Origin: Eledone cirrhosa
Lineage: Eukaryota
DNA length: 64,000 nucleotides
Direction of reading: 5' to 3'
Assembly: GCA_964016885.1 (NCBI GenBank)
Contig: OZ024760.1
Span: forward strand, 11,284,001 to 11,348,000
The position numbers were made by a program, and so were the translations under genes. Position 1 is the stretch's first letter. Every line of letters starts with the position of its first letter. This document shows positions 4,940 to 5,435 of this stretch, in pieces. A model generated the notes under the pieces. That model was not told where the DNA came from, did not search any database, and saw only the letters and a program-made list of their open reading frames with translations.

Positions 4940-5099
4940 TTTCAAGCTTCAAGATGGTGGTGTCTTACAGAGAGTGAAGATATGCTTATGCTGGTGGTAA
5001 GGGAAAGTGGTGAGGTGATCGAATCATCGAATTATCGAAAAAAACAAAACATATGTTTTCGCCTGTTTTCAAAGTCCGGCAGTTACAAGAGCGGGGGAG

Positions 5100-5143
5100 A
5101 TCGTCCTGACGAGAACCAGTTGAGTTCGAAATGCATCGACGAT
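5100..5143 (+). ncRNA. Intact minimal type I hammerhead ribozyme
   Basis: ATCGTC-CTGACGA-GAAC(cagttga)GTTC-GAAA-TGCA-TC-GACGAT: perfect 6-bp stem I, canonical core, 4-bp stem II, palindromic stem III (ATGCAT), AUC cleavage after 5137. Stem I extends via GGGGGA/TCCCCC. Confidence 0.9.
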
Positions 5144-5435
5144 TATCCCCCCTTGCTTCTGCCAGGCACCGCCTGGCGTCGTTAACTGCCAGTGTGTTAT
5201 TCATAGCTACGGTTTTCTAAATGTTTATTTATAAACATACCGTATTTCTTTAGAAATACGAAATTCAAATACATATTTGTATACAACAATGTTCGAAGGT
5301 AAATTCTAATATATATATATATACATCATATATATATATATATATATATATAAACAAATAGTAGAAAGGAAAAAGATTTTTTTAGTAGAAAATGTTGAGG
5401 TTTTTTAGTGAAATTTCAAAGCATTAATTTATTTA

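Follow-up and report, generated by a model that had tools for sequence, protein, structure and literature searches.

The hammerhead motif examined here lies on the forward strand of a 64,000-nt stretch of Eledone cirrhosa DNA (the window), within a single, 5'-truncated arm of a 343-nt non-coding hammerhead repeat. The arm occupies 5043..5310 (+) and corresponds to about positions 67-336 of the repeat unit. With 268 nt the window copy represents 78% of the 343-nt unit, and homology extends from 5043 to about 5310, where the sequence passes into a (TA)n tract. This microsatellite (5309..5352) abuts the 3' end of the copy and is the likely insertion target. The last segment of the copy (5270..5310, +) is the 'tail' between the two 3' end sites preferred by the family, and the window copy ends at the distal site. 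A second copy of the 343-nt unit was found neither in the window nor in the 30 kb upstream of it (94 kb altogether). The locus is a single truncated arm and does not show the two consecutive hammerheads by which elements are classed as active in the part of bioRxiv 10.64898/2026.07.22.740005 that was available; it is a monomer derivative and not an active array.

The motif itself (5100..5143, +) has the attributes of a type I hammerhead, namely a conserved core, stems I and II and an open end in stem I, and differs from the family majority at 0 of 44 positions. All its elements are on the same strand and can be read from the sequence: stem I of 6 bp (5100-5105/5138-5143), core C3-A9 (5106-5112), stem II of 4 bp with a G10.1-C11.1 pair and a 7-nt loop (5113-5116/5124-5127, spanning 5113..5127), core G12-A15.1 (5128-5131), and U16.1 and C17 at 5136 and 5137, respectively, with a predicted cut 3' of 5137. 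An earlier description of this DNA, made from the letters only and referred to below as the sequence-only reading, had predicted cleavage 3' of C5137, which agrees with the core layout deduced here, and had drawn its helices at the positions where they are found. The mobile-element hammerhead motif that it proposed is real, as judged by the sequence and by the repeat family that shares it. Its wording 'fully canonical' holds only if the dimer-dependent form of animals is meant, the departure being in helix III. The minimal helix III (5131..5137, +) is made up of the A15.1-U16.1 pair closing a palindromic, self-complementary 4-nt loop, followed by C17. Fold prediction gives it a pair probability of 0.0 in the monomer, that is, no stable monomer helix III, and -4.7 kcal/mol for the self-duplex. 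Since helix III consists of one pair and a palindromic loop, a dimer would be needed, and the helix would pair with that of a second copy. A dimer-dependent form of the hammerhead is known from animals according to PMC4209133, and axolotl HHR_Amex1, as described in PMC7229834, is of this form too. Searches against Rfam gave no hammerhead match at the gathering score in the window or at E <= 5 in the interval 4000-7000.

The region 5070-5195 is predicted to fold with -50.4 kcal/mol (z = -3.86), a value as good being reached by 0 of 200 shuffles. Predicted pair probabilities are 0.91-1.0 for stems I and II, for a GGGGGA/TCCCCC helix, for a hairpin at 5161-5177 and for a helix enclosing them all, with a lower predicted probability of 0.67 for the last pair of the enclosing helix. 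GC content is 57.5%, versus 33.7% for the window, and the window copy has 10 CpGs, versus a family median of 7, a count equalled by 7 of 64 aligned rows. The GC-richness and intact CpGs singled out by the sequence-only reading are present, but come with the repeat family and are not peculiar to this copy. The loop beside stem I is an internal loop in the family and is predicted to be a 1-nt bulge in the window copy. Because fast cleavage needs contacts between loop 1 and loop 2, as reported in PMC4209133, the near-closed loop beside stem I probably lowers the predicted cleavage activity of the window copy.

A copy-number search of the 3.0-Gb genome, which the sequence-only reading had proposed, was carried out with 5060-5210 as query and returned 1,726 candidates, so that we are dealing with an abundant repeat. 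The best 40 of the 1,726 candidates were scored and yielded 45 matches, the best full-length match other than the copy itself being 92% identical. The notion of a very young element is at odds with these data, given the 92% identity of the nearest full-length relative among the scored matches and the 4.8% difference from the subfamily majority (12 of 251 positions; rank 8 of 41, median 6.6%). Relative to the all-family majority, 15 of 265 positions differ (rank 23 of 92, median 7.3%). For the description of the family, 80 distinct loci with 120 arms were collected, duplicates being dropped, with baits from three parts of the unit and a pattern search; the sample is biased, in that the window copy or its kin served as bait and the best 40 candidates per search were scored. 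The family unit recurs with a tandem period of 343 nt and in circularly permuted copies. As a non-coding unit of 343 nt with one type I hammerhead, it lies within the 150-400 nt set for retrozymes, and three loci (L008, L063 and L112) have two tandem hammerheads each, so that the head-to-tail arrangement exists at the family level. A distinct 343-nt subfamily with its own 3' hairpin (L098, L101, L106-L110, L113 and L114) has two compensatory stem II pair changes, in three copies. A terminal hairpin in the sequence upstream of L021 looked at first as if it were common to another family, but only the first 76-80 of the 165 bases of that sequence were matched, and the hairpin is part of the 343-nt unit.

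The 3' ends of the arms are strongly clustered. Forty-three of the 120 arms end at unit positions 288-313 and 46 at positions 329-9, leaving 31 elsewhere; the two windows cover 14.6% of the unit yet hold 89 of the 120 ends, and the sites are about 45 nt apart. A microsatellite is found within 40 nt downstream of 56 of the 89 clustered ends, versus 10 of the 31 other ends. Two outward-facing arms are present at 31 of the 80 loci, and 14 of these use each site once. When the mapping was relaxed (137 arms), the 5' ends proved to be scattered, 39 arms are longer than one unit (the longest being 737 nt), and 87 read through the cut site, with 3 starting within 5 nt of it. For a Penelope element, PMC11167929 describes reverse transcription starting at two adjacent internal sites that bound a tail of 30-40 nt, and cutting of AT-rich DNA. 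The family has both attributes of insertions mobilised in this way, namely two adjacent internal 3' end sites and AT-rich targets, and by this likeness its ends appear to match the Penelope type.

Around the ribozyme, two arrangements have to be considered. The family structure extends stem I by a rod (5074-5082/5159-5167 and 5085-5089/5152-5156, spanning 5074..5167, +) followed by a 3' hairpin (5173-5180/5185-5192, spanning 5173..5192, +). In the window copy the rod is damaged at 5085 and 5164 and the hairpin at 5179 and 5185, and the predicted dominant structure is the alternative fold of the sequence-only reading (5078..5190, +), in which 5078-5085 pairs with 5183-5190 around the hairpin at 5161-5177. 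The GGGGGA/TCCCCC helix (5093..5151, +) arises from changes of the window copy at 5096 and 5145 and from one added C, which reduce the family internal loop next to stem I to the 1-nt bulge. The majority sequence is predicted to fold as rod then hairpin with -62.8 kcal/mol, versus -50.4 for the window copy, a stability that 1,707 of 3,000 majority sequences with random mutations also reach. As a circle, the subfamily majority is predicted to reach -101.7 kcal/mol (z -7.5, 60 shuffles).

Of 73 candidate rows, 64 were aligned, nine being left out on account of large deletions or poor extraction. On these 64 rows 88.9% of the cells of the family structure are paired and double changes number 41, and 0 of 500 shuffles reach either value, a count that is not a probability because the covarying rows are related and few events are counted many times. 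Covariation is seen, for instance, at 5078:5163, where G-C is replaced by A-U in 19 of the 64 rows. For the helices of the alternative fold the paired share of cells is 78.7%, a value equalled or exceeded by 200 of 500 shuffles, and the change at 5078 unpairs the first pair of that fold in 30 rows. The rod is the predicted winner in 50 of the 64 rows and the alternative fold in 4, that is, the window copy and three others. Homologues do not keep the pairings of the outer fold, an outcome that the sequence-only reading had itself named as refuting, and this fold is not that of the family. The pairings of the ribozyme stems, on the other hand, are kept in homologues; in stem II, compensatory double changes occur in an older subfamily, with 3 and 5 rows altered on both sides. 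RNAalifold recovered only 4 pairs (-0.97 kcal/mol) from the 64-row alignment, which we put down to the decay of the copies, and the named structures were counted row by row in place of its consensus. Compensatory change between subfamilies shows that the predicted rod around the ribozyme has been kept, and the outer fold is, according to the fold predictions, the second-best fold of the family, favoured by the window copy's own changes.

These private changes deserve a closer look. Between 5072 and 5197 the window copy differs from the subfamily majority by seven substitutions and one added C, as given by the assembly sequence alone; among the contigs of three runs from one sample, none spans the locus over 4820-5310, and 4956-5040 is without cover. 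Through four of the substitutions, each of the four G-U pairs in the alternative fold has become a Watson-Crick pair, which raises the Watson-Crick count from 11 to 15 of 15, and family-fold pairs go from 22 to 18, with four lost. Two further changes perfect the GGGGGA/TCCCCC helix. In a null simulation with seven random substitutions, a single one of 400,000 trials reached 15 of 15 Watson-Crick pairs, and the alternative fold came out as the winner in 26 of 1,200 random-substitution trials. The four changes occur in other arms at rates of 4/108, 21/129, 3/125 and 9/123, the product of which is about 1 in 100,000, and about 0.005-0.02 such wobble-fixing copies would be expected among 1,700; the true odds are milder than computed, because the alternative fold was chosen after the fact, for looking perfect. 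None of 148 other arms shares more than two of the seven substitutions, evidence against a sub-lineage of any size. The best matches to the variant-rich part are 90-93% identical, and arms with the 5145 change show no significant excess of the other changes (p = 0.28). Simple correction of inverted repeats by template switching is an unlikely source, as each helix has changes on both of its arms. That the outer fold is so perfect in this one copy is a real feature, and one that is not fully explained.

It could be that the window copy records a switch from the rod to another multi-helix fold, brought about by coordinated changes selected on the replicating RNA or on the locus, which we consider unlikely. 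It could also be that the copy derives from a rare variant of the parent RNA, the ribozyme flank having been refolded by compensating changes during RNA replication, partly before insertion. Of the eight changes in 5072-5197, six give rise to Watson-Crick pairs of the predicted dominant fold, the subfamily majority can already form every pair of the alternative fold (15 of 15, wobbles included), and evolution at the RNA level has been proposed for such motifs in PMC4209133. Yet the copy has no sibling among the arms compared, with the majority sequence the alternative fold is less stable by 18 kcal/mol, and ordinary changes are also present outside the fold, so that a parent variant of this sort seems improbable. 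Selection of structure in the parent RNA lineages, and not in the window copy, remains the best explanation.

The Penelope-type 3' ends raise the question whether the unit might be, instead of an independent retrozyme, a terminal repeat (pLTR) that has become detached from an autonomous Penelope-like element. According to PMC4209133, pLTRs carry type I hammerheads, mostly as solo motifs, and one locus (L008) adjoins the end of a GIY-YIG ORF. This ORF end was considered as a candidate helper and is a chance neighbour: its family comprises 28,396 candidates, and at 29 of 29 other fetched loci of that family no sequence of the 343-nt unit is present within 1.5 kb. No attached ORF and no common coding flank were found in 51 free 5' flanks, in which the shared sequence amounts to a common short repeat, microsatellites and remnants of the unit. 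An RT plus GIY-YIG ORF joined to the repeat was encountered at 0 of the 29 candidate-family loci and in 0 of the 51 free 5' flanks of the sample. Furthermore, the unit repeats itself with a 343-nt period, and its canonical 6-bp/4-bp ribozyme does not have the extra nucleotide before stem II of the minimal pLTR motifs presented in PMC4209133. A detached pLTR is therefore quite improbable, and we continue to treat the unit as an independent retrozyme. One member of the GIY-YIG family (G000:C1:168367153-168367449, -) is situated within an open frame of 1,241 aa that may represent an intact Penelope-like element.

A retained functional RNA, the other possibility put forward in the sequence-only reading, is not borne out by the distribution of intact cores. 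The exact 45-nt core occurs at least three times in the genome, the window copy included, and is thus rare, yet within what survival would give: about 10 intact cores are expected among 1,726 copies, so a clean core needs no selection. The combination of intact core, both stems and palindrome was observed in 11 of the 64 aligned rows, and in 3 of the 34 rows chosen outside the ribozyme. In 74 arms picked outside the ribozyme, the ribozyme diverges from the majority by 8.3% at non-CpG and 19.8% at CpG sites and the 3' part of the unit by 8.2%, figures that include subfamily differences and are biased low in the bait regions; the ribozyme has been kept no better. Retention of the window copy by the host as a structured or self-cleaving RNA, for which one may invoke the 0 of 44 changes in the ribozyme, its place among the at least three exact 45-nt matches and the flanking changes that improve one coherent fold, is very improbable in view of the intact cores expected by survival, of a helix III without a cis partner in 94 kb, of the near closure of the loop next to stem I, a likely tertiary-contact site, and of the fact that a survey of the long open frames of the window, short of full annotation, revealed no host gene. 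The intact core is best explained as a survivor among many copies.

Taken together, we conclude with a probability of about 0.8 that the locus holds a single copy of an abundant 343-nt repeat, truncated at its 5' end, moderately diverged and probably inert here; the repeat is likely a non-autonomous retrozyme, copied by a Penelope-type reverse transcriptase from an RNA that was probably circular. The locus is most likely an ordinary relic, and the family is likely a non-LTR retrozyme with Penelope-type ends and a 343-nt unit. Based on the systems described in PMC7229834 and PMC11167929 and on the layout of the copies, tandem parent copies would be transcribed, neighbouring hammerheads would pair via their palindromic helix III and then cut, and the monomers would be ligated to structured circles. 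A borrowed Penelope RT/endonuclease would then start at the two internal sites and run round the circle. Where TA-rich DNA is broken, copying of the Penelope type may extend one end of the break or both, often for more than one turn, and at the window locus an incomplete single arm would have been inserted at the TA microsatellite and have decayed since. The arms that are longer than one unit could stem from uncut multimeric transcripts instead of circles.

The window contains further hammerhead-like motifs besides the one at 5100-5143. Four of them, in which stem II is long and stem I short, are present at 1162 (+), 12288 (+), 55507 (+) and 42661 (-), as given by the first core base; TA-rich repeats come after each of them, and they resemble the minimal pLTR motifs described in PMC4209133. 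Hammerhead-like cores of other families are located at 41772 (+), 62794 (+), 42203 (+) with 42114 (-), 53132 (+) and 7137 (+). Those at 42114 and 42203 form a back-to-back, near-identical pair, and at 53132 stem I is long and helix III contains a 6-nt palindrome. Close to the window copy, 4545-4941 is taken up by a MITE-like repeat that has inverted ends and encloses an 85-bp tandem array, its right end giving 662 candidates and very high contig depth. A short abundant repeat at 5435-5551 (-), present in many of the fetched loci, presumably resembles an animal SINE core. The 181-aa open frame at 29830-30372 (-) ends in what we take to be a GIY-YIG-like stretch, probably a Penelope remnant, and the 152-aa open frame at 52360-52815 (-) resembles, we assume, the C-terminal part of a non-LTR retrotransposon protein. 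A near-perfect hairpin of about 80 nt at 6637-6719 was matched by several miRNA models far below their gathering scores, and two similar blocks at 28252-29306 each consist of a short (AACCCT)n followed by TA and AG microsatellites.

Retrozymes and their link to Penelope have already been described, and the locus as it stands matters little. The 343-nt family is a further example of a retrozyme with Penelope-type ends; should the coordinated changes of the window copy have been selected, they would be evidence for RNA-level evolution of animal retrozymes, or for a copy kept by the host. Among the papers found on ribozymes and cephalopods, titles and abstract openings gave no such family, which is not to claim that it is absent from print. 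Among known systems, the family is most readily set beside the axolotl Rtz331/HHR_Amex1, as portrayed in PMC7229834. Both have a non-coding unit of about 340 nt with less than 45% GC (38% here), one type I hammerhead per unit with a one-pair helix III and a palindromic tetraloop, tandem copies and a highly structured predicted circle. Unlike Rtz331 as described there, our sample consists mostly of dispersed one- or two-armed insertions of at most about two units, without long arrays, and the window copy is shorter than one unit and is known here from sequence alone. Inverted arms and fixed 3' ends, which characterise the 343-nt family, are absent from the retrozyme description in the accessible part of PMC7229834.

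Dispersed monomers and a Penelope link are shared with the solo retrozyme derivatives of Penelope-like elements reported in bioRxiv 10.64898/2026.07.22.740005, where such solo (monomer) derivatives are regarded, in the part available, as offspring incapable of transposition. With 78% of the unit, the window copy is just below the 80% line for full length drawn there, and, unlike for those derivatives, no parent pLTR was found for the 343-nt family in the sample. Similarities extend to the Penelope pLTR hammerheads as presented in PMC4209133 and to those of anole Poseidon in PMC11167929, which are likewise of type I and dimer-dependent; two internal 3' end sites, a short tail, AT-rich targets and nearby copies on opposite strands are also common to the systems in these two accounts. 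In contrast to the pLTR hammerheads of PMC4209133, no ORF is attached and the stem lengths are canonical and not minimal, and the one Penelope family compared showed no sequence match with the 343-nt unit. In its sequence-level features, the 343-nt family fits the metazoan non-LTR retrozymes.
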